From: a virus | Taxonomy: Duplodnaviria > Heunggongvirae > Uroviricota > Caudoviricetes | Direction: 5' to 3' (one strand) | DNA length: 12,502 bases | Virus record (IMG/VR): IMGVR_UViG_2698536590_000008 | Span: 1-12,502 of that record | Part shown: in pieces, positions 1-12,502 of the stretch | Layout: each line of letters starts with the position of its first letter | Position numbering within the stretch: position 1 is the stretch's first letter | Program-made: the position numbers and the translations under genes | Notes under the pieces: generated by a model | The model's database searches: none | What the model was told of the DNA's origin: nothing | What the model saw: the letters and a program-made list of their open reading frames with translations, nothing else

Positions 1-2289
1 ATTCCCGGGGCGGTTCAACATGATGCCTAGCCTTGATATGGTTTTCTTATCTGATTCTGGAAGTGAGTTGTAAAACGAGCGCCAAGCAGAAGAGCGTCTT
101 ACAGTTGTGTCAACGATGCTTTCTGGTGCTTGTTTTACTGCCAGCCTTGCTGCTTTCTGGAATTCTGGTGAGCTAATTAGCTTTTCTGCAGATTCAATTG
201 ATTCAGCGCCGCCCATCGCCCTGATTTTGCTGGCGACTTTTGCCCCAATTTCTGACCCAGCAACAGCACCTACTGCACTGAACGGTCCTGACACAGTTGA
301 ACCAACCGCAGTGCCAATGCGTTGGGCATGGTTAGCAACAAATTCATTTGCCGCAGTGACGCGATTAAACCGTTTGACGAACTCGTTTAGTCTTCCTGTA
401 GTTATCTCGTAAGATTTTGCGTCTTTGATAGCCTTTGCGACCTTATATACATCGTTCAGACCTGACATAGTCTCTTTTGGTAAATATCGGGCAAGATTGC
501 GCATCTGCCCGTTTGCTAACATGTTTTGATACCAGTCAGCAAACCCTGCAGGATTAAAATCAGCGCCACGTTTTCCGTTCGAAAGCATATCCCGAAGACC
601 TGTTCCCAGTAGCTCGGTTCTTAGCTTCCTGGACGGCGTGTTTTGCATCAATTCACGAAATCCTTTGGCATCGCCTTTCGACATTGCCTGTAGTGCTGTA
701 GTTGCTTTGCGAGAAACATCACCGTTCAGCGTTCTGCCAGTTAGATTAATCATTTGCTCTTCCATGCTTTTTCGCATCTGAACAAGCCTCTGAGCAACTT
801 CAAAATCACGTAATGCATTTGTCTCTGACAGCGCCGCCTTTTGATCATCGGCGAGCGAACCGTAAAGCCTCGATAAAGCAGCGCGATCAGCATCTTTATA
901 TGGTCCAGAATTCTTATGAAGTGCATCACCAACAAGTCGTCGTTGCTTATTGAGATTTGCATAAGTTAATGCGCCGTTCTTGCCTGGATTAACTGCCCGA
1001 AAGACTCTCTTTTCAATAGGGTCAAGGTTTTTCATCCCGCCAAGATCTTCTGCCACCTGTTTGAGCATTGACCTTGTTGATGGCGCATCAATTTTTGCAC
1101 CTGCAGGCATCGCCTTTTCAACATTGCGATAAAGCTGGTCGCTTCGTTTCATCAGCGCAGACATTCTTCCATTGACCGTATCAATAAACTTGTCGCTCAT
1201 ACCAAGAGCATCTTTTGCACCGGAAACGCGATCAATTATCTCCCCCGCGCCCTGTGCTAGCTGCCTGATTGCTTCATTTTCCTGCACCTGTAGAGCAGAA
1301 CCCGCACGGGACTTGATTGCTTGCTCAACTGCCTTGTATTGCTCGTTCCCGGAAAAGTGTGAAGGGAGTAATGAATCAACATTAAGCCTTTCAGCAGACT
1401 CCAGAACTTCAGCCTGAGGATTGATATCTAGTTCATCAAGCGATGAAGCGAGATTTGGCCTTTTTTGTGCTGCTACTGTGCGAACGACTTCCTCTGGGTT
1501 CCTCGTCGCAGGAGTTATTGGTACACCTTGTGCTACTCTTGCCTCTGCGGCATGAACCGCAGGATTTGTTGCTGCAGCGGCATCACCGGAGAATGGTGAT
1601 GTTTCTGTTGGCGCAGTGGTCGCTCTCTGTACAGATGTTTTATTGCCACTAATTATATTTGATGCACCACGAACACCACGGGTAACGCCATTTATCAGGC
1701 CATGCGTAGCAATGTTAAGTCCGGCATTAATAGCGGCATTTTCGGCAAAATCACCCCGTTGATTCGCCGCGTCAGCGAGAGAACCAATGACCATGTTTCC
1801 AGCTACACCTGCTCCAGGAACAAGATAACCGCCTATTGACTCTCCAGCTTGCGCATACGGATCCGTTGGCCGGTTAACTGGTCTATATACTTCATCAAGA
1901 ATCTTTGGTCCATCAAAACTCTGAGATGCGGCATTAATGAGACTCGCCCCCCCCTGAAGAACGTCAAAAGGAATATTTACAAATCCTCTTACCGCCTGCT
2001 CGGCAATTTGACCTACGCTTTGCCCACCTGTTAGCCATTCTCCTGCACGCTGCATAAGTGATTTGTCTTGCTGAATGGTATCAGGAGATTGCCCTACTTC
2101 CTGCTGTTCTGTCTGCATTGAAGGCAATGGATAGGCATCATAGAAAGCTTGCTTAGCCTGCTCTGCATTTTCTCCGGCTTGCGGGGCCACGACTTCATTG
2201 AAGTATTGCTCCTGAGCCTGCGCTTTTTGTTCTGGTGCTAACGCCTGATACTGTGGAGAGGCGATAACATCTTTCCATGCTTTAGCCAT
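1..2289 (-). CDS. DNA ejection/transfer protein at the P22 gp16 position; C-terminus runs off the window edge (more than 762 aa present)
   Basis: Checked codon by codon: minus-strand frame is open for all 763 codons from ATG at 2289-2287 (overlapping the upstream stop as TAATG) down to position 1, with no stop; this is why it is absent from the ORF track. N-terminus [24 protein letters not shown]. Assignment rests on position directly after the gp7-like and gp20-like genes. Longer than the roughly 600 aa I recall for P22 gp16. Confidence 0.6.
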
Positions 2290-4744: not shown

Positions 4745-5592
4745 TACTGCTCCGCGATTATCTTGATGGTTGTGGCAGTAAAAGCCGCACCATTAGACTG
4801 AATGGTTAACGTACTGCCATTTGTGGCAAGAAAGCCGTCTTTATCCACGCTGAAGAACGTAGCTAACAGGATGTTGTCGGTTGTTGTCGCCGAGTTACGA
4901 CTGCTTACCAGAGTGTCAGGAACAGATCCGGAAAAGGTTAGCTGCATTGACCTGTTGGCGGTTCCGCTGGGCCACGTCCCGACGATCGACAGCTTGAAGA
5001 ACAGGGTTTTGTTCTCGTTGAACACAACCATCTTGTTGTTAACGGTGTCGAAGAATGGTGCCAACGTGCCGGATGACGGCGTGAGCGTTTTCAGCAGGCT
5101 AACAAGGTTGGTCGGCGCTGTCGGGATGGTTACAGATACGCCAGAGTAAACAACCTCTGACTTTTTGCGAGTAGTGGCATACTCCAGAGCATCGATGCGC
5201 GTTTCATGGTCTGAAACCTGCGATTCCAGCGACTGAACTCTGGTATCAAGCGAGGCAATATCGCTTTCATTCTGAGCTATTCGTGTTTCATGTTCCTGAA
5301 GAGTTGATTCTGCCTGGCTGATTCGCTCCTCATGATTAACAAGCGTTGCTTCCGCAGCAGAAATTCGCTGCTCATGGTCAGCGAGAATCACATCCTGCTC
5401 ATCGTTCCTGACCTGTGCATCATAAGCGCCCTGTCCGGCCTCGTTGGCCTTGTTAGCCACGTTACCAACATCAGTGCCCTGTGCGATAACGTAAAGCAGA
5501 TACGACTGCGAGAAGATATTGCGTGGAAGGACTGATGTGTCGAGCCGTGTAGCCTGAATGATTACCGGCACATTGAGATTAGAATCCGCCAT
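4744..5592 (-). CDS. Tail needle protein, P22 gp26-like with Sf6-type C-terminal knob (282 aa)
   Basis: N-terminus [43 protein letters not shown]...NDEQDV..ADHE closely matches the P22 gp26 N-terminus as I recall it; followed by heptad-like coiled-coil repeats (HEQRIS, HEERIS, HETRIA, HETRID); 282 aa with a non-P22 C-terminal domain, as in Sf6/HK620-type needles. Confidence 0.8.
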
Positions 5593-7022
5593 TACTCAAT
5601 CCTTATCTGAGCACCAGACAGAGTGACAGGTGACTTCGTGATAACGCGCAATTTGAAGCCGACATTTTTCCTGATGCGCCCTACTCGCTTCCACAAAACG
5701 CGTTTGTCGTAAACGAACGGTTCATTCTGCTCAATCATCTGCTCACGCCCGTAATTTATGCCGTCAGTGGTTGCAGAGAGAAAAAGGCGGTCAGCATACT
5801 GCGCAACTCCAGTTGACGATTCAACTTCAAGGTCGAAAACTCTGGCGTTATCCGCTTTGAACAGAGGAGTAAACAGCAGATGTTCCTGTTGCTTGTCGTA
5901 CTGGCTGCTGATGTCGAATTGCAATTTCCCGGTCACCGATTCCAGTTTGTCGCCGCACGTTATCTGATTTCCTTCGTAAATGAAGTCGATAGCGCGGTAC
6001 ACATCGTCATACAGGCCTGTTTTCAACACACACCATTGCGGACCATTGGCGCTTGAAGATGCGTCGTACACGAGAACATGGCGCGGAAGGTGGATAATCA
6101 GCAACTCATGAGCATCAAATCGCAGCGATTCCATCACACCATCAGCCAGTTCATCAGCAGTGTAGGAGCGGAGGATTTTCTCAATGCTCGCGCTGGCGAT
6201 TGGTGACACCTGACCGGAGCCGATGATGTATACAGACGGCGCACCTGTTGCCGGATTGCTGATGAACGCATACGAGTCAGCAAACGGCGTTTTGCAGTAA
6301 GTCCCGGCAATGCCTTTCTGCACCATCAGCGATGGCTGTGCGACATACAGAGCAGCCCCAACAGTGGTTGCACCAGTCAGGGAGAAATATTCAATCGTCG
6401 ACGAACCAAAGCAGACTATGAAGTCTCGCCATGTACCTATGCCGATGATGCCGTCAGGCTGCGACTCTGCACGATATTGTGCGCTGTATCGGTCAGGATG
6501 CGATTCGTCTTCAAGGTCAGTGATAAACCATGAATCAGTTCCGTCTTTTGACCACGCATAACGCCCACGTAAGCGCGTAATGTCGCGAACCGAACCTAAC
6601 TCATACTGCGTAAATCCGCTGTCTGTAGGCCAGTTTGAGACGGTTTTAACCGTGCCATCATAGCGATACTCAACCAGTTGACCATTAACGCCTACAGCCT
6701 GAGATGTTCGACCATGCGCCATTGATACGCGACCACTTCCGGCGACGTCACCGACTTCGCTTTCGCCTTTGTAGAGCTTGCCGCCACACACACGATAGAC
6801 AGCATTCTGCGCCATGTTGTACTCGACGCCGCGCGATACACCGTTCACATCAGAGCGTTTGGCAATGCCCGGGAATGAGCGAAGATATCCGCTGCTGTTC
6901 AGGATTTCTTTGGGGGTTGCCAACATATTCACTGGCAGATAGTCGATATAGTCGGCGTTTCGAAAGTCTTTGCCGACACCTTTCATAAGCGGAAGTTGCT
7001 GAAGAGGAAGAGTGTAGAGCAA
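5592..7022 (-). CDS. Tail hub / head-completion protein, P22 gp10-like (476 aa)
   Basis: ORF track 476 aa; [40 protein letters not shown] and length match P22 gene 10 product as recalled. Start is TTG at 7022, the first start codon after the in-frame TAA at 7071-7073; the first ATG is at 6986-6984. Stop overlaps the needle gene start. Confidence 0.8.
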
Positions 7023-7042
7023 AGGATAAAGCTCACCGGAAA

Positions 7043-7162
7043 GAAGTAAATAACAAAATACTTGCTGACCTTATCAAGGTTGGCGCATCAGAAGATGTTG
7101 CTAAAAATATCATAACAGCCATCGTAAAAGGCGAAGTATTCGCAACAAAAATAACCTACTAA
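7043..7162 (+). pseudogene. Start-less C-terminal coding fragment (...NKILADLIKVGASEDVAKNIITAIVKGEVFATKITY*) upstream of cIII
   Basis: Plus-strand frame is open from 6989 to TAA at 7160-7162 with no ATG/GTG/TTG in frame; its 5' part overlaps the gp10 start region. Consistent with the 3' remnant of a gene truncated at a deletion or rearrangement junction. Left boundary approximate. Confidence 0.35.
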
Positions 7163-7186
7163 TAAAACCAACATAAGGAACCACCC

Positions 7187-7318
7187 ATGATTTACGCAAT
7201 CGCGGGAGGCGCTCGCATGGGTGCCTTCCAATTAAATGAATCTTTACTTGAACGAATCACCCGTAAATTACGTGACGGATGGAAAAGAGTTGAGGTCTTA
7301 TTATGCGCAATGAAATAG
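7187..7318 (+). CDS. cIII: CIII-like protein (43 aa)
   Basis: ATG at 7187 with AAGGA SD 7 nt upstream; translation MIYAIAGGARMGAFQLNESLLERITRKLRDGWKRVEVLLCAMK contains the ESLLERITRKLRDGWKR core I recall from lambda CIII; below the ORF-track size cutoff. Confidence 0.7.
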   Translation: MIYAIAGGARMGAFQLNESLLERITRKLRDGWKRVEVLLCAMK

Positions 7319-7530: not shown

Positions 7531-7701
7531 ATGTCACTTGCAACCACAGTGAAGGAGAGCAAGTTACAGAGACGCATGTACACGCAGCAGGCGTTAATGT
7601 ATCGCCAGAAGGGAGATCGTGAAGGTGTTCGCGTATTTTTAAATGCGGCAAAGACTGAAGTATTAAATCAGCGTTATTTCCTTGGGCCATGTCCATTCTG
7701 A
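7531..7701 (+). CDS. Small early protein at the arf position between kil and erf (56 aa)
   Basis: ATG at 7531 preceded by a strong GAAGGAG SD at 6 nt spacing; ends 10 nt before the erf ATG. Competes with an overlapping alternative frame at 7452-7622 (see rejected list). Confidence 0.35.
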   Translation: MSLATTVKESKLQRRMYTQQALMYRQKGDREGVRVFLNAAKTEVLNQRYFLGPCPF

Positions 7702-7711
7702 GAACAAACAT

Positions 7712-8317
7712 ATGAGCAAAGAATTTTACGCAAGACTGGCAGCTATTCAGGAGAACTTGAACGCGCCAAAGAATCAGTACAACTCATTCGGCAAATATAA
7801 ATACAGAAGCTGCGAAGACATTCTTGAAGGCGTTAAGCCGTTACTGAATGGTCTGTTTTTATCAATCAGCGATGAAGTTGTGTTGATTGGTGATCGGTAT
7901 TACGTGAAAGCCACGGCAACTATTACCGATGGCGAAAACAGTCATACGGCAACCGCTCTTGCACGAGAGGAAGAAAGCAAGAAAGGAATGGATTCTGCAC
8001 AAGTTACGGGAGCTACAAGCTCTTATGCACGCAAGTATTGCCTCAATGGTTTGTTCGGCATTGATGATGCGAAAGATGCAGATACAGACGAGCATAAACA
8101 TCAGCAGAACGCAGCAGCAAAGCAATCAAAACCATCACCTACACCTGAACAGGTTCTAAAAGCATTCACTGACGCAGCAATGCAGAAAAACACCGTGGAA
8201 GAGCTTAAACAGGCGTTCGCCAAAGCGTGGAAGATGCTCGAAGGCACACCGGAGCAGCACAAAGCGCAGGACGTTTACAACATCAGACGAGACGAATTAG
8301 AAGGAGCGGCTGCTTAA
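7712..8317 (+). CDS. erf: Erf single-strand annealing recombinase (201 aa)
   Basis: ORF-track protein from internal ATG 7712: MSKEFYARLAAIQENLNAPKNQYNSFGKYKYRSCEDILEGVKPLL...ATITDGENSH...SSYARKYCLNGLFGIDDAKD matches P22 Erf as I recall it. The track's upstream extension (TTG 7682) is unlikely to be the start. Confidence 0.8.
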   Translation: MSKEFYARLAAIQENLNAPKNQYNSFGKYKYRSCEDILEGVKPLLNGLFLSISDEVVLIGDRYYVKATATITDGENSHTATALAREEESKKGMDSAQVTGATSSYARKYCLNGLFGIDDAKDADTDEHKHQQNAAAKQSKPSPTPEQVLKAFTDAAMQKNTVEELKQAFAKAWKMLEGTPEQHKAQDVYNIRRDELEGAAA

Positions 8318-8700
8318 TGGCACATTCGATTACTGTAAGACTAAACAAGCCCGCAAGAGAGTTTCAGGCCGGGGAAAATATCGGATTCAACATCCGTGCT
8401 GGCGTTCAGTATTACGATCGCCAGACAAAAAAGAAAGAATGGACAAACTACAGCGCCGTTGTATTTGCCAAGCCGGGAGCGCAAGCGGATTACTACCGTA
8501 GTGTTCTTGTTGAAGGTGGCATTGTGGAAATTACCGGAGAAAACATCAGGGTTGATGTTTATCAGGGGCAAAATGGTCAATCAATCACTCTTGAATTACT
8601 GAATGCAAAGATTGGATTTGCAACTTCAGGAAACAGCCAACAGCAGCAAAGTAGCAATCATCAAAATCATCCTGAATACGACGATTCAATCCCCTTCTAA
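8317..8700 (+). CDS. Single-stranded DNA-binding protein-like (127 aa)
   Basis: ATG at 8317 overlaps the erf stop (TAATG) with AAGGAG SD 10 nt upstream; OB-fold-like core (WTNYSAVVFAKPGAQADYYRSVLVEGGIVEITGENIRVDVYQGQNGQSITLEL), a Gln-rich linker and the acidic tip DDSIPF typical of bacterial SSB C-termini (compare DDDIPF). Confidence 0.65.
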   Translation: MAHSITVRLNKPAREFQAGENIGFNIRAGVQYYDRQTKKKEWTNYSAVVFAKPGAQADYYRSVLVEGGIVEITGENIRVDVYQGQNGQSITLELLNAKIGFATSGNSQQQQSSNHQNHPEYDDSIPF

Positions 8701-8723
8701 AGTAGCAACATAAGGATTCCATT

Positions 8724-9020
8724 ATGCCAGCGCCTCTGTATGGTGCGGATGACCCGCGCCGCTGTTCCGGCAATTCCGTATCGGAGGTGCTGGATAAATT
8801 CAGGAAAAACTACGATCGGATAATGTCGCTACCGCAGGAAACGAAAGAGGAAAAGGAATTTCGCCACTGTATATGGCTTGCAGAGAAAGAAGAACGAGAG
8901 CGAATTTACCAGACATCAATCCGACCATTCCGCAAAGCAACATATACCCACTTCCCTGAATATATCGACCCGCGCCTGCGTAATTACCGCTCACGCTATG
9001 GCGCTATCAGTAATGACTGA
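8724..9020 (+). CDS. Hypothetical early protein (98 aa); position and size comparable to P22 Abc2 anti-RecBCD, unconfirmed
   Basis: ORF track 98 aa; ATG at 8724 with AAGGA SD at 6 nt; directly downstream of the erf-ssb pair, where P22 carries its abc genes. I cannot recall Abc sequences well enough to confirm. Confidence 0.5.
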   Translation: MPAPLYGADDPRRCSGNSVSEVLDKFRKNYDRIMSLPQETKEEKEFRHCIWLAEKEERERIYQTSIRPFRKATYTHFPEYIDPRLRNYRSRYGAISND

Positions 9021-9030
9021 GGAATTAACA

Positions 9031-9321
9031 ATGAAAACAATGAAGCTAAACATCGACCTCGGAAAATACGTTATTACCGGAACAAAACACGATCTGATTC
9101 TTAGCGAAAGAGGAATTATCAAAGAAGGCGAGAATGCAGGGAAAGAAACACTAAGCCGTATCGGTTATTACAGCAAGTTTGAGCATCTGGTTAAAGAGTT
9201 ATGCAACCGTGAAATCCTGTTATCTCAGGCGCAGACGCTACAGGATATTCAGCAACATATCGAGACTTTAGGTGTGTCACTTAGCATGGCTATTGACCAG
9301 TTCGTGGAGAGTAAATCATGA
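9031..9321 (+). CDS. Hypothetical protein (96 aa)
   Basis: ATG at 9031 with GAGG SD 8 nt upstream; in frame with track ORF 8878-9321, whose 5' extension overlaps the preceding gene and is unlikely; product [22 protein letters not shown]... Confidence 0.5.
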
Positions 9322-9485
9322 GAGGGCTTGCATACAATCCCGGCATTCTTCCGGCAGAAATGATTATTCGCCAACGCGTAAAGCCAATGCCATCGAGAGA
9401 GGAATTGCTTAAGAGAAATTCTTTTCCATCAGTGAATCAAAACAAATATCTGAATGCGATGTGGCGCAAAGGAGGCAGCCAGTGA
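9318..9485 (+). CDS. Hypothetical small protein (55 aa)
   Basis: ATG at 9318 overlaps the previous stop (ATGA); product [55 protein letters not shown]; fills an otherwise unexplained 160-bp gap; below the ORF-track cutoff. Confidence 0.4.
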
Positions 9486-10126
9486 ATAACCGCTTTTACA
9501 TGATGTGCTTGCGTGAAACTGTGGGTAATAACGCTTCATTCCATTGCCATAACGGCAATGGTTACAGTTCTAATATCGATCGCGCTCATGTTTACACGCT
9601 GGAAGAAGCCCAAAAAGCCTGGAATTGTGGTCGAGATATCGATCAGCCTGTTTGCGCTGATAGCGTGGATGCAATGGCTGTGTGGCACGTTGATTGCCAG
9701 TACATCCCTACAGAAAACCTGATTGAGCCAGATTGCACTGCGTATGTGGCCTACAAAAAAGGTAGCTGGAACGGCAACGATGTTTACTGGCTTCAACACG
9801 GTGGATTGCCAACAGATGACTTCAGTAAAGCGACCATCTTTAGCGTCGCCAACAAAAACGAACCAGGAATAGTTTGGTTGCCATTTTCCATTGCTGATTC
9901 AGCAAAGCGCCGGACGTTCAATATCAATAACTTTAACCGCAGAACAATGGTTCAGGGCGCAGGTTTGGTCATGCCTGACTGGTTGAAAAAGCAGAACAGA
10001 AGAAAGAAGTCGCGAAGCGGGAAGGTGCGTTGGAATTGTCCGCATTGCGGAAAAATCACCTGGCAGCACAACCCATATGATTTTGAAGGCTGTAGTGATT
10101 ACAACTGTGAAGGATGGCGAGAATGA
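9482..10126 (+). CDS. Cys/His-rich protein with C-terminal zinc-ribbon motif (about 214 aa), unknown function
   Basis: Track ORF 9461-10126; preferred start GTG 9482 (AAGGAGG SD at 7 nt, overlapping the previous stop), or ATG 9500. C-terminus [44 protein letters not shown] has a basic patch plus CxxC...C....C; N-terminal half has several Cys/His. Confidence 0.55.
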
Positions 10127-10670
10127 CAATTGACTATCAGGCACTGCGTGAAAAAGCAGAAAAGCAACGTGTGGTGTATGGTCGCTCGAATATGGAGAGG
10201 AGAGATTTGATGGTGATGATGCACTAATTCATCGCGAGGCTGCTGGATATATTCCCATTTGCAGAATTGAAGGAGCGCATCCAGAAAGCGGTTTCGATGA
10301 AGATTTCCAAATGGAACAGCAGGCCAATGCTGAATTCATCGCCGCAGCCAATCCAGCTACCGTGCTGGCACTACTAGATGAAAGGGAAAGAAACCAGCAA
10401 TACATCAAACGCCGTGACCAGGAGAACGAGGATATTGCGCTAACGGTAGGGAAGTTGCGCGTTGAGCTTGAGGCAGAAAAACAGCGGGCAAAGGATCTGT
10501 TTATGGAAAATGCTCGGCTTAAGTCAGGTATAGCCGGTCTGATACACCTCGGTATTCGATATGCAGATGTTGAGGTCATGAAAATTGCTGGAGATGCCCA
10601 GCTTTCTACCCCATGCACTGACAGCATCATAAACAGCATTGCAACAGGCATTCGCATCAAAGGAGAGTGA
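10123..10670 (+). pseudogene. Ead/Ea22-like protein gene, apparently disrupted by a 1-nt frameshift
   Basis: ATG at 10123 (overlapping upstream stop) opens a 34-codon ORF ending at 10227; a second frame is open from 10152 to 10670 (track ORF 10311-10670). One added A in the A4 run at 10160-10163 joins them into a roughly 183-aa protein [20 protein letters not shown]...EFIAAANPATVLALLDERERNQ..., which resembles prophage Ead/Ea22-like proteins from memory. Confidence 0.45.
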
Positions 10671-10671
10671 T

Positions 10672-10935
10672 ATGGCAACTTTGACAAAAAAGGAACAGGC
10701 ATGGTTGAGCGAATTACAGAACGTTCTTGATCGCTGCCCGTCACCGAAAAAAATTGGTTTTTACACCATTGGCGATAAAAGCATTTACCTGTATGACCTA
10801 CGCCGCATGGATGAAATCATGGAGGCTCTTGATAATCGTTCGTCAATGGATTGGTGTGTTGCTGTCCATGATATGAATGCCGGATTTGAAGAAAAGATTT
10901 TGTTCCCCTCGTCAGTTGAAAGCACTGCGGGTTAA
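10672..10935 (+). CDS. Hypothetical protein (87 aa)
   Basis: ATG at 10672 with AGGAG SD at 6 nt; in frame with track ORF 10639-10935; product MATLTKKEQAWLSELQNVLDRCPSPKKIGFYTIGDKSIYLYDL... Confidence 0.5.
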   Translation: MATLTKKEQAWLSELQNVLDRCPSPKKIGFYTIGDKSIYLYDLRRMDEIMEALDNRSSMDWCVAVHDMNAGFEEKILFPSSVESTAG

Positions 10936-10945
10936 GGAGTAACAC

Positions 10946-11590
10946 ATGACCACTATTACCAAAGAACGTATTGAATTGTTCATTAAAAATCCGCTTGAAA
11001 ACGGACTTACCCGTGGCGAACAAATGGAACTGGCACGGATTGCACTGGCATCACTGAAACGCGAACAGATTCGCCACGAGCATGCCAAATGGTCTGACTC
11101 CACATTTGGCTGCGTTGGCCCCATTGGTCCACTGAAACACCTCTCAAAAGAGGCACTGGAAGCCGCAGCCGAACCAGACGATCTTAGCGAGTGGGCTGAT
11201 ATGCAGTTTCTGTTGTGGGATGCACAGCGCCGTGCTGGCATCAGCGATGCTGAAATTACCGCTGCTATGGAAGATAAATTGAAGATTAACATGGAGCGCC
11301 AGTGGCCTGAACCAAAAGATGGTGAGCCTCGCTTGCACATTAAAGAACCCGGCAACTCTCCGGTAACTCCGGATGGTTGGATAAGCTGTAGTGAGCGAAT
11401 GCCTGAAATTAGACAAACAGTTATTGGATGGAATGGATATGCAGTTAGACAATGCGTATATACAAGGAATGGATACGCCAAGACACAGAAAGGCAGAGAG
11501 CCAAGGTTTGAAACCTCAACTGGTATATGGCATGGAGTAACCCACTGGATGCCGCTACCAGAACCGCCGCAGGAGGTTAACCGCGGCTAA
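10946..11590 (+). CDS. DUF550/DUF551-type prophage protein (N-terminal dATP/dGTP pyrophosphohydrolase-like domain, C-terminal DUF551), 214 aa
   Basis: ORF track 214 aa; ATG with AGGAG SD at 6 nt; N-terminal region (HEHAKWSDSTFG...) resembles the MazG-like dNTP pyrophosphohydrolase domain common in enterobacterial prophages; C-terminus (PDGWISCSERMPE...GIWHGVTHWMPLPEPP) fits the DUF551 pattern. From recall. Confidence 0.6.
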   Translation: MTTITKERIELFIKNPLENGLTRGEQMELARIALASLKREQIRHEHAKWSDSTFGCVGPIGPLKHLSKEALEAAAEPDDLSEWADMQFLLWDAQRRAGISDAEITAAMEDKLKINMERQWPEPKDGEPRLHIKEPGNSPVTPDGWISCSERMPEIRQTVIGWNGYAVRQCVYTRNGYAKTQKGREPRFETSTGIWHGVTHWMPLPEPPQEVNRG

Positions 11591-11690
11591 CCTGCAACTT
11601 GCCGTCAAAGGTGAATAACAATCCTCGCACTCGCGGGGATTTCTTTTATCTGAACTCGCTACGGCGGGTTTTGTTTTATGGAGATGATAA

Positions 11691-11825
11691 ATGCACTTCC
11701 GAGTCACAGGTGAATGGAATGGAGAACCATTCAACAGGGTTATCGAAGCAGAGGACATCAACGACTGCTATAACCACTGGATGATATGGGCGCAGATAGC
11801 GCATGCAGACGTAACAAATATTTGA
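11691..11825 (+). CDS. Hypothetical small protein (44 aa)
   Basis: ATG at 11691 with GGAG SD at 7 nt; MHFRVTGEWNGEPFNRVIEAEDINDCYNHWMIWAQIAHADVTNI; followed 22 nt later by a strong hairpin terminator. Preferred over the TTG-initiated overlapping track ORF 11599-11784, which has no SD. Confidence 0.4.
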   Translation: MHFRVTGEWNGEPFNRVIEAEDINDCYNHWMIWAQIAHADVTNI

Positions 11826-11847
11826 TTTGAAGAACTGAAAGAACACC

Positions 11848-11872
11848 AAGCCGCCTGATGGCGGTTTTTTAT
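11848..11872 (+). terminator. Rho-independent terminator-like hairpin with U-tract
   Basis: AAGCCGCC (11848-11855), loop TGAT, GGCGGTTT (11860-11867) gives an 8-bp stem including one G-U pair, followed by a T6 run (11865-11870). Confidence 0.55.
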
Positions 11873-11884
11873 TGGAGACAAGAA

Positions 11885-12229
11885 ATGTCAGATTTGGCTA
11901 TGAAGGTTTTGAAATGGCAATCAACTGGCGATGTTGGCATCAGTAGCGCAACTCTTGCCTCAATCGCATGTGTACTGAAAAAGAATATCTATGGTCATCA
12001 CTTCGGCGCTCCCCATGACGCAGCCGATTTCAGACGATGCGTTGCACTTGTTGAGCAGATTCCAGAAATCAGAGATTCATTCAACAAGGTTGCAAAGCGC
12101 GTTCCGGCATTCAAAGGCATCCTCAACGAATGGGATTCTCTCGTTGCTCTGTTGAAGTCTGAAATGAAGATACACGGAAACAAAGCACCAGAGACTTACA
12201 AAAGAATCAGCGAGCTACGCAAGGACTAA
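11885..12229 (+). CDS. Hypothetical protein (114 aa), orphan gene bracketed by two hairpin terminators
   Basis: In frame with track ORF 11858-12229, but ATG 11858 lies inside the terminator loop; preferred start ATG 11885 with GGAGA SD at 6 nt. Product MSDLAMKVLKWQSTGDVGISSATLASIACVLKKNIYGHHFGAPHDAADFRRCVALVEQ...; no family recognised. Confidence 0.5.
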   Translation: MSDLAMKVLKWQSTGDVGISSATLASIACVLKKNIYGHHFGAPHDAADFRRCVALVEQIPEIRDSFNKVAKRVPAFKGILNEWDSLVALLKSEMKIHGNKAPETYKRISELRKD

Positions 12230-12310: not shown

Positions 12311-12502
12311 ATGACCGATACCAGCCTGATTCCTGAGAAAGAAGTGATGAACAAGCTCGGTGTTTCATCACGTCAGACAATCTGGAACTATACCAAACGG
12401 CACGGATTTCCGAAGCCAGTCAGAACCCACCCCAAATCATACCTTCGTGAAGCTGTTGAAGGGTGGATTCTTAACGGTGGCGTTAATCAGAAATGCTCCT
12501 GA
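12311..12502 (+). CDS. xis: Excisionase / AlpA-family DNA-binding protein (63 aa)
   Basis: ORF track 63 aa; ATG with GGAGA SD at 6 nt; EKEVMNKLGVSSRQTIWNYTKRHGFPKPVRTHPKSYLREAVEGWI matches the AlpA/Xis HTH pattern (S..TIW.....G.FPKP.......W...E...WI); position at the distal end of the early-left arm, where xis precedes int. Confidence 0.6.
   Translation: MTDTSLIPEKEVMNKLGVSSRQTIWNYTKRHGFPKPVRTHPKSYLREAVEGWILNGGVNQKCS

Follow-up and report, generated by a model that had tools for sequence, protein, structure and literature searches.

How did the tail genes of a P22-like phage come to lie head to head with a cIII-kil-erf arm? In the stretch of DNA analysed here (the window, 12,502 nt), the ORF list holds a 476-aa ORF on the minus strand (5592-7022, TTG start) and a 43-aa ORF on the plus strand (7187-7318), which diverge across a gap of 164 bp (7023-7186). 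An earlier note on this DNA had placed a gp10-like gene at 7022 and cIII at 7187 in just this arrangement, and its coordinates match the ORF list. It had offered three readings: a large internal deletion that left a defective prophage, an inversion breakpoint, or an assembly join. We consider it very probable that a single ~21-kb deletion in an Sf6/Sf101-like prophage in sbcB joined the tail genes to the cIII-kil-erf arm. The evidence lies in the junction itself, in the complete element that surrounds it, and in the recurrence of the same bases across assemblies.

Features of the Window

The window covers the middle of a 19.6-kb defective prophage. Its features are collected in Table 1, where the Pfam assignments are precomputed matches on identical genes in other contigs. 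The early-left accessory genes comprise DUF5405, DUF2737, a 214-aa ORF, Ead/Ea22, an 87-aa ORF, dATP/dGTP pyrophosphohydrolase-DUF551, and a 114-aa ORF. The 3′ end of the 63-aa helix-turn-helix gene overlaps the convergent integrase gene just past the window edge; its counterpart in L022 carries the PGAP name "helix-turn-helix transcriptional regulator", and from its position the gene probably encodes the excisionase. No Rfam family reaches the gathering threshold for a structured RNA anywhere in the window.

Table 1. Positions of the features in the window and the basis on which each was assigned
Feature	Position	Strand	Basis
IS3-family terminal inverted repeat	1..17		window start ATTCCCGGGGCGGTTCA unlike all other carriers
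gp16 DNA-transfer (ejection) protein gene	18..2289	minus	PF26808 Phage_P22_gp16 on identical gene in L003/L014; C-terminus comparison
gp20 ejection protein, 431 aa	2289..3584	minus	PF16928 Inj_translocase; identical protein in intact relatives L012, L013, L015
gp7 ejection protein, 230 aa	3594..4286	minus	PF25688 P22_gp7
DUF2824 protein, 151 aa	4289..4744	minus	PF11039; Sf6-type gene between needle gene and gp7, position as in Sf6-like phages
gp26 tail needle with Sf6-type knob, 282 aa	4744..5592	minus	PF16532 Phage_tail_NK
gene 10 (tail hub / packaged-DNA stabilisation protein), codons 2-472	5592..7007	minus	PF11134 Phage_stabilise; gp4/gp10 alignments
Deletion junction GAAGAGG	7001..7007		three-way alignment and BLAST match ends
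Chance 5-codon ORF extension (TTG LLYTL) of gp10	7008..7022	minus	antisense of gene-33 remnant
3′ remnant of Sf6 gene-33 / "TolA-like" gene, 53 codons and stop	7001..7162	plus	translation matches L022 TolA-like and Sf6 gp33 C-termini
cIII, 43 aa, ATG start at 7187	7187..7318	plus	PF02061 Lambda_CIII; 99% DNA identity to cIII regions of many lambdoid phages
kil, 50 aa	7303..7455	plus	PF06301 Lambda_Kil
Recombination module	7531..9020	plus	56-aa ORF, Erf, 127-aa ORF, Abc2
Erf	7712-8317	plus	PF04404 ERF
127-aa ORF	8317-8700	plus	in recombination module
Abc2 anti-RecBCD	8724-9020	plus	PF11043 Anti-RecBCD_p2
Early-left accessory genes	9031..12229	plus	Pfam matches on identical genes in L003
63-aa helix-turn-helix gene adjoining int	12311..12502	plus	gene calls in L003/L014

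A Microhomology Junction between Two Truncated Genes

The true junction occupies positions 7001-7007. When the window is aligned to the intact gp4/gp10 junctions of Sf6, NRG857C, and L015, homology to gene 10 of these relatives ends at 7007, which is codon 2 (CCT, 7007-7005), and the position of the native gene 10 ATG (7010-7008) reads CTT in the window. Only the ATG is lost from the coding part, while the ribosome-binding site and the upstream gene 4 are gone as well. The start of gene 10 at 7022, as proposed earlier, is not borne out by this alignment: the codons from 7022 to 7008 are gene 33 read in antisense, so that the TTG start is a chance extension of the ORF and an annotation artefact. 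The 164 bp are not the intergenic spacer for which they had been taken, either. Positions 7001-7162 encode exactly the C-terminal 53 residues and the stop of the 322-aa gene-33 protein that normally precedes cIII; in Sf6, gene 33 encodes a 322-aa coiled-coil protein, often labelled TolA, directly upstream of cIII. The gene-33 remnant has neither a start codon nor a promoter, and the junction truncates a gene on each side.

The ends of BLAST matches locate the join within the same few bases. On the gene 10 side they end at 7003 or 7007, reaching 7007 in phages Gally and HF4s, and on the gene-33 side they begin at 7001 in mEp213, in CUS-3, and in E. coli genomes. In a three-way alignment of the window with the intact gp4/gp10 of L015 and the intact gene 33 of L022, the switch from one parent to the other falls within CCTCTTC in locus orientation (GAAGAGG), and outside this motif the parental sequences have no similarity to each other. 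The microhomology is 7 bp if the parental codon for Leu3 was CTT, as it is in Gally and HF4s, and 3 bp exact (6 of 7) when compared with the L015 allele. Since the length depends on which gene 10 allele the parent carried, the bases shared at the join could be as few as 3 bp.

We note that the surroundings of the junction are otherwise plain, with no IS, no long repeat, no recombinase site, and no likeness to the att core. Int-mediated recombination at a secondary att site was rejected as the source because GAAGAGG is unlike the core GTAATCGTGAAA, and an IS-mediated deletion was rejected because the junction lacks an IS. The few shared bases, the unrelated flanks, and the lack of an IS, repeat, or recombinase site are the features that define a microhomology-mediated (illegitimate) deletion. 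A consensus scan of both strands between 6990 and 7190 returned no new promoter at the junction, the counts being those expected from shuffled sequence.

The join also accounts for the discordant annotation of gp10, to which the Logan assemblies and GCA_002535575.1 give 476 aa and other NCBI (PGAP) assemblies, starting from an internal Met9 at 6986, give 464 aa. The gp10 gene here has no start codon, and both calls are gene-calling artefacts.

Extent of the Missing DNA

Alignment to Sf6, which had been suggested as a means of placing the breakpoints, does place them. In a megablast comparison with phage records, the Sf6 matches form two blocks on one Sf6 strand: window 2123-7003/7007 runs to Sf6 down to 6,843/6,839, and window 7001/7007-11874 runs from Sf6 23,321 downward. 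In Sf6 terms, 11.7 kb down to 6,839-6,843 is joined to 23,321 down to ~18.4 kb. The Sf6 annotation puts the start of gene 10 at 6,836 and places 23,321 within gene 33, so the breakpoints correspond to gene 10 codon 2 and to the interior of gene 33. The missing DNA amounts to 21,262 bp relative to the NRG857C prophage (locus L011, 10,962 joined to 32,225), ~21.3 kb relative to Sf101, and ~22.6 kb relative to Sf6.

On the NRG857C map, the deleted stretch comprises ral/N/PL, the repressor-cro region, cII, replication, nin, a Q-type antiterminator, and the lysis genes, followed in its late part by the small and large terminase, portal, scaffold, coat, and gene 4. As the earlier note had reported for the window, the intervening modules are absent: gene 4, coat, scaffold, portal, terminase, lysis, nin, replication, immunity, and N/PL are found neither in the window nor in the whole element between attL and attR.

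The Complete Element in sbcB

The complete element is seen in two contigs, L003 and L014, which overlap across the window; L003 runs through the junction to sbcB and L014 to dacD-sbmC. The order of genes is plaP-yeeE-yeeD-sbcB, int (392 aa), the 63-aa helix-turn-helix gene, the early arm to cIII, the junction, gp10-gp16, mnt, tailspike, the gtr genes, and dacD-sbmC. Both contigs have the tailspike (669 aa, head-binding domain PF09008) just beyond the window, and the gtr end of the element consists of a 421-aa gtrC-like gene, gtrB, and gtrA. Each end carries the 12-bp att core GTAATCGTGAAA (L003 3136-3147; L014 19289-19300), and the two copies are 19,591 bp apart. The SbcB N-terminus at attL, MTDTDKQPTFLFHDY, is a new one of phage origin, and the native 5′ end, MMNDGKQQSTFLFHDY, stays at attR, such that the 5′ end of sbcB is duplicated or chimeric at the att sites. 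The same core is that of the Sf101/2851 attP, reported to target the 5′ end of sbcB (PMC4159516). The tailspike, integrase, and att sites for which the earlier note had proposed to inspect the flanks are all present in these two contigs.

Several observations identify the element as a defective prophage: attL and attR sit at a known attB, each flank is collinear with intact relatives as far as one junction, where genes are truncated, and this junction recurs in independent data sets. Its ancestry is equally clear. The window is 81-95% identical in DNA to P22-like phages, and the block gp10-gp26-(DUF2824)-gp7-gp20-gp16 is syntenic with theirs and is followed by a tailspike with a P22 head-binding domain. 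With no head, packaging, lysis, replication, or immunity modules in the window or the element, it is not a functional phage of this type; the element derives from the P22-like (Lederbergvirus-type) family and is not a functional member of it.

Recurrence of the Junction and Rival Explanations

If an assembler had wrongly joined two parts of an intact prophage, the short repeat at the junction might have been the cause, and it could be held in favor of such an error that the window comes from an unknown assembly and that 0 of 5,426 complete E. coli RefSeq genomes carry the junction. No phage record covers the junction, and the junction sequence has no exact match among IMG/VR viral contigs. The carriers are draft assemblies, drawn from different SRA runs and from NCBI. 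A look-up of the 476-aa junction ORF returned 12 contigs (seven Logan SRA assemblies among those shown, together with NCBI GCA_002535575.1) and a look-up of the 464-aa version returned 9 further NCBI contigs, for ~21 carrier contigs in all. The 41-bp junction core is exact in every junction-bearing contig read, 14 distinct contigs (L003-L010, L014, L016-L018, L143-L145). A base-identical junction in ~20 contigs from independent runs and assemblers (Logan, NCBI) is not what a misjoin would give; moreover, assemblers work with k-mers far longer than a 7-bp repeat, and L014 and L003 run through the junction to opposite host flanks while overlapping over the window. The carrier contigs extend to 432 kb, the longest read end to end across the element being 62 kb. 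We therefore regard the assembly join that the earlier note had listed as extraordinarily improbable. An inversion or other rearrangement, with the missing modules moved elsewhere in the same element or genome, could likewise yield a divergent, head-to-head arrangement. However, the gene orientation is that of a normal prophage minus its middle, both arms match Sf6 on the same strand, and the element is continuous and uninterrupted over 19.6 kb from attL (sbcB) to attR (dacD) without head, lysis, replication, or immunity genes, which makes this reading, also raised earlier, highly improbable. The large internal deletion leaving a defective prophage is the one of the three that the collinear flanks, the truncated genes, and the attL-attR element without essential modules uphold.

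The intactness of what is left invites the view that the element is a natural satellite, or a tail-only element that would get its heads from a helper phage: int, the probable xis, and both att sites are preserved, as is every tail and ejection gene, and several strains carry reduced versions of the family. We find this very hard to accept. Gene 33 is cut to 53 codons and gene 10 has lost only its ATG and ribosome-binding site, and the tail-arm DNA is 99.6% identical to that of the intact L015 (gp10 to gp16) and 99.3% identical to that of L012 and L013 (gp26 to gp16). The element has no replication, regulatory, or helper-interference module, and the junction no promoter-like site. Satellites of the PICI, P4-like, or capsid-forming PICI kind are distinguished by a regulatory and replication module of their own and by helper-exploitation genes, in a conserved and compact arrangement; the element has no primase, replication, repressor, or interference genes, and its junction interrupts genes. 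The breakpoints of the other reduced versions differ from those of the element, which fits independent decay. The earlier note had allowed that a natural group might share this layout and hold its essential modules elsewhere in the same element, and there are no such modules between attL and attR. The remaining alternative concerns the trigger. An HNH/NUMOD4 gene lies in L012 and L013 between a 32-codon fragment of native gene 10 and a recoded gene 10 start, less than 100 bp from the deletion endpoint, and a cut by this homing endonuclease might have set off the deletion. Yet the HNH cassette sits after codon 32, and a break there followed by resection would not leave the native codons 2-32 that the window has, so that we think such a trigger most improbable.

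Proposed Course of the Deletion and Its Consequences

The sequences show one deletion, with a microhomology at its join, in an integrated prophage. In the course that we favor, the parent was an Sf6/Sf101-like prophage, that is, a P22-like podovirus of the Lederbergvirus type that integrates into the 5′ end of E. coli/Shigella sbcB. While it was integrated, one illegitimate (homology-independent) recombination between GAAGAGG in gene 33 and codons 2-4 of gene 10 removed ~21 kb, taking with it N, PL, the early and regulatory genes (immunity, replication, nin, and Q), lysis, and the late genes from terminase through portal, scaffold, and coat to gene 4. The element still has attL, int, the probable xis, the Erf/Abc2/kil/cIII arm, gp10 without its ATG, gp26, DUF2824, gp7, gp20, gp16, mnt, the tailspike, gtrCBA, and attR. 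The molecular route was presumably independent of RecA and may have been replication slippage or microhomology end-joining. Illegitimate recombination at short homology is a well-known source of deletions in E. coli; this exact deletion appears to be undescribed, whereas events of this type are well known.

The established organisation of lambda and P22 has PL upstream of N and the late promoter adjoining Q, and in the Sf6 annotation N lies beyond the breakpoint. Because PL and the late promoter beside Q would both fall in the deleted block, both retained arms would be left without their promoters (PL and the Q-dependent late promoter). Judged from the promoters known in lambda and P22, expression would be expected only from the self-promoted genes int, mnt, and gtrABC. 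With the promoters of both arms lost, the remnant would be unable to make repressor, to replicate, to lyse, or to build particles. It should be non-inducible, as it has no head, lysis, or replication genes, and it should also be non-immune. Excision may still be possible, since int, the helix-turn-helix gene, and the att sites at both ends are intact. A viable deletion that removes the repressor must also take PL and PR, for otherwise kil and lytic functions would be expressed, and the deletion in the sbcB element does so. The retained gtr genes may confer some benefit.

Taken by itself, the event is ordinary prophage decay with little meaning beyond correct annotation, by which this block of tail and recombination genes should be annotated as a non-inducible prophage remnant. 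It also illustrates cleanly, to the base, how prophage decay begins, with one microhomology deletion that removes both early promoters and all lethal functions together.

Relatives and Other Reduced Prophages

The closest intact relatives of the tail arm are L012, L013, and L015, which share an identical gp20 with the window and keep the terminase, portal, scaffold, coat, and gp4 upstream of gp10; in L012 and L013 the gtr-dacD junction is the same as in the element. Overall, the DNA of the window matches Sf101 best (94.8% identity over 65% of the window), and to either side of the junction the genes stand in the order in which Sf101 has them. Sf101 is an sbcB-integrating, serotype-converting, Sf6-like podovirus (PMC4159516). 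In contrast to the element, Sf101 is a complete, inducible phage of 38.7 kb with oacB, whereas the element has lost ~21.3 kb of the center and has gtrABC beside the tailspike instead. Sf6 (Lederbergvirus Sf6), at 95.3% identity over 54% of the window, is intact and integrates at argW. The NRG857C prophage occupies the torS-torT site and, unlike the element, also has the immunity, replication, and lysis modules.

A cryptic remnant that likewise keeps int and gtr genes is CPS-53/KpLE1 of E. coli K-12 (intS-yfdGHI). "Grounded" prophages in general are disabled by internal deletions and IS insertions (PMC6379469). The element, a textbook case of a grounded prophage, differs in standing at an early stage of decay, with one clean deletion, intact remaining ORFs, both att sites, and near-identical carriers.

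Other strains carry, at the same site, members of the family that have been reduced in different ways. On the NRG857C map, L020 joins 17,939 to 34,337 and L021 joins 16,766 to 33,520, and L019 is reduced as well. A 14.5-kb remnant in MFDS1001074 at sbcB-dacD (11,902 joined to 42,167) has an intact gene 33 joined near mnt, and in many strains of the ECSC054/UPEC132 type an 8.9-kb int′-ISSen4-tailspike′-gtr remnant occupies sbcB-dacD. There are at least five sets of breakpoints in the sbcB prophage family; most visibly keep the integrase arm, and the contigs that reach far enough keep the tailspike-gtrABC end. It is possible, if rather doubtful in our estimation, that P22-like prophages in sbcB are repeatedly and independently cut down by central deletions and perhaps selected as a domesticated O-antigen-modifying island that might still be excisable, and that in the present early-stage remnant the intact Erf/Abc2 and tail and ejection genes could also act as a recombination reservoir for superinfecting P22-like phages. 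The graded remnants at sbcB-dacD could be used to study how a prophage is whittled while its O-antigen modification genes are kept.

Continuing Decay in Individual Carriers

Compared over stretches of up to 12.5 kb, the carriers show only 0-2 SNPs relative to the window, and they therefore form one recent, clone-like lineage. After the deletion came IS insertions in individual carriers. In the source of the window only, the IS3-family terminal inverted repeat at 1-17 cuts off the last 11 codons of gp16, which is 767 aa in the other carriers. At least 119 viral contigs contain the 17-mer, often close to a contig end or as an inverted pair. It flanks IS3-type OrfA/OrfB in L036, in a 1.3-kb element annotated "IS3 family transposase" that is multicopy in E. 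coli. ISSen4, which is found in other remnants, was considered as the source of these 17 left-end bases and does not match them; a different IS3-family element is involved. In GCA_002535575.1, the end of an IS2 lies at the position equivalent to window 12093/12094.

The shorter gp16 (602 vs 767 aa) annotated in L016 and L017 was considered as further decay and set aside as a difference between gene callers, which probably also explains the shorter tailspike (430 vs 669 aa) of these contigs. The gp16-region DNA of both contigs is identical to the window, the single mismatch in L016 lies elsewhere, and intact relatives are also called with a 602-aa gp16.

Integration Site and Integrase End

Integration of the prophage swaps the opening codons of SbcB. 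At attL the start reads MTDTDKQPTFLFHDY in L003 and the native start, MMNDGKQQSTFLFHDY, is left over at attR in L014, these two carriers of the deletion jointly covering the whole element; the exonuclease I of lysogens is therefore chimeric. The integrase gene is convergent with a 63-aa helix-turn-helix (HTH) gene, whose 3′ end it overlaps by 20 bp, and so points the same way as the tail genes. The HTH gene is probably xis, and the convergent pair differs from the int-xis arrangement of lambda.

Coordinates of features in the window, carriers, and relatives
Feature	Coordinates	Remarks
sbcB/att boundaries	L003 3136-3180 (attL); L014 19289-19335 (attR)	
63-aa HTH gene	window 12311-12502	with the convergent integrase gene, L003 3362-4712
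IS3-family terminal inverted repeat	window 1-17	
IS2 end	L004 1-127, corresponding to the window from 12094	GCA_002535575.1 contig; prophage left at window-equivalent 12093/12094
Truncated gp10	window 5592-7022	
HNH/NUMOD4 homing-endonuclease gene	L012 5902-6627; L013, identical coordinates	intact relatives; inserted after gene 10 codon 32

Changes in Individual Carriers and Relatives

The window differs from the other carriers at its very start, where the 17 bases ATTCCCGGGGCGGTTCA belong to a multicopy IS3-family insertion sequence and form its terminal inverted repeat; in the window's source this IS breaks gp16 11 codons ahead of the stop. The IS2 event in GCA_002535575.1 is separate from this one, and both befell the same deleted element. 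The A at window 11973, which is C in four other carriers (L003, L004, L014, and L016), is a substitution private to the window's source.

Public gene calls for the truncated gp10 conflict: the Logan assemblies and GCA_002535575.1 give 476 aa, from a chance TTG, versus 464 aa, from Met9, in other NCBI/PGAP assemblies, and neither matches the native 472 aa. In L012 and L013, relatives that retain the genes upstream of gp10, the HNH/NUMOD4 gene is a mobile endonuclease cassette within this essential tail gene; the insert carries its own recoded gene 10 5′ end, and a native fragment of 34 aa remains upstream of it.

At least five further deletion or IS remnants belong to the sbcB-integrated family (L019, L020, L021, L022, and L023). 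Their breakpoints differ in each, and they are independently derived. The integrase end is at least partly visible in most of them, and the tailspike-gtr end is retained in those whose contigs reach that far.
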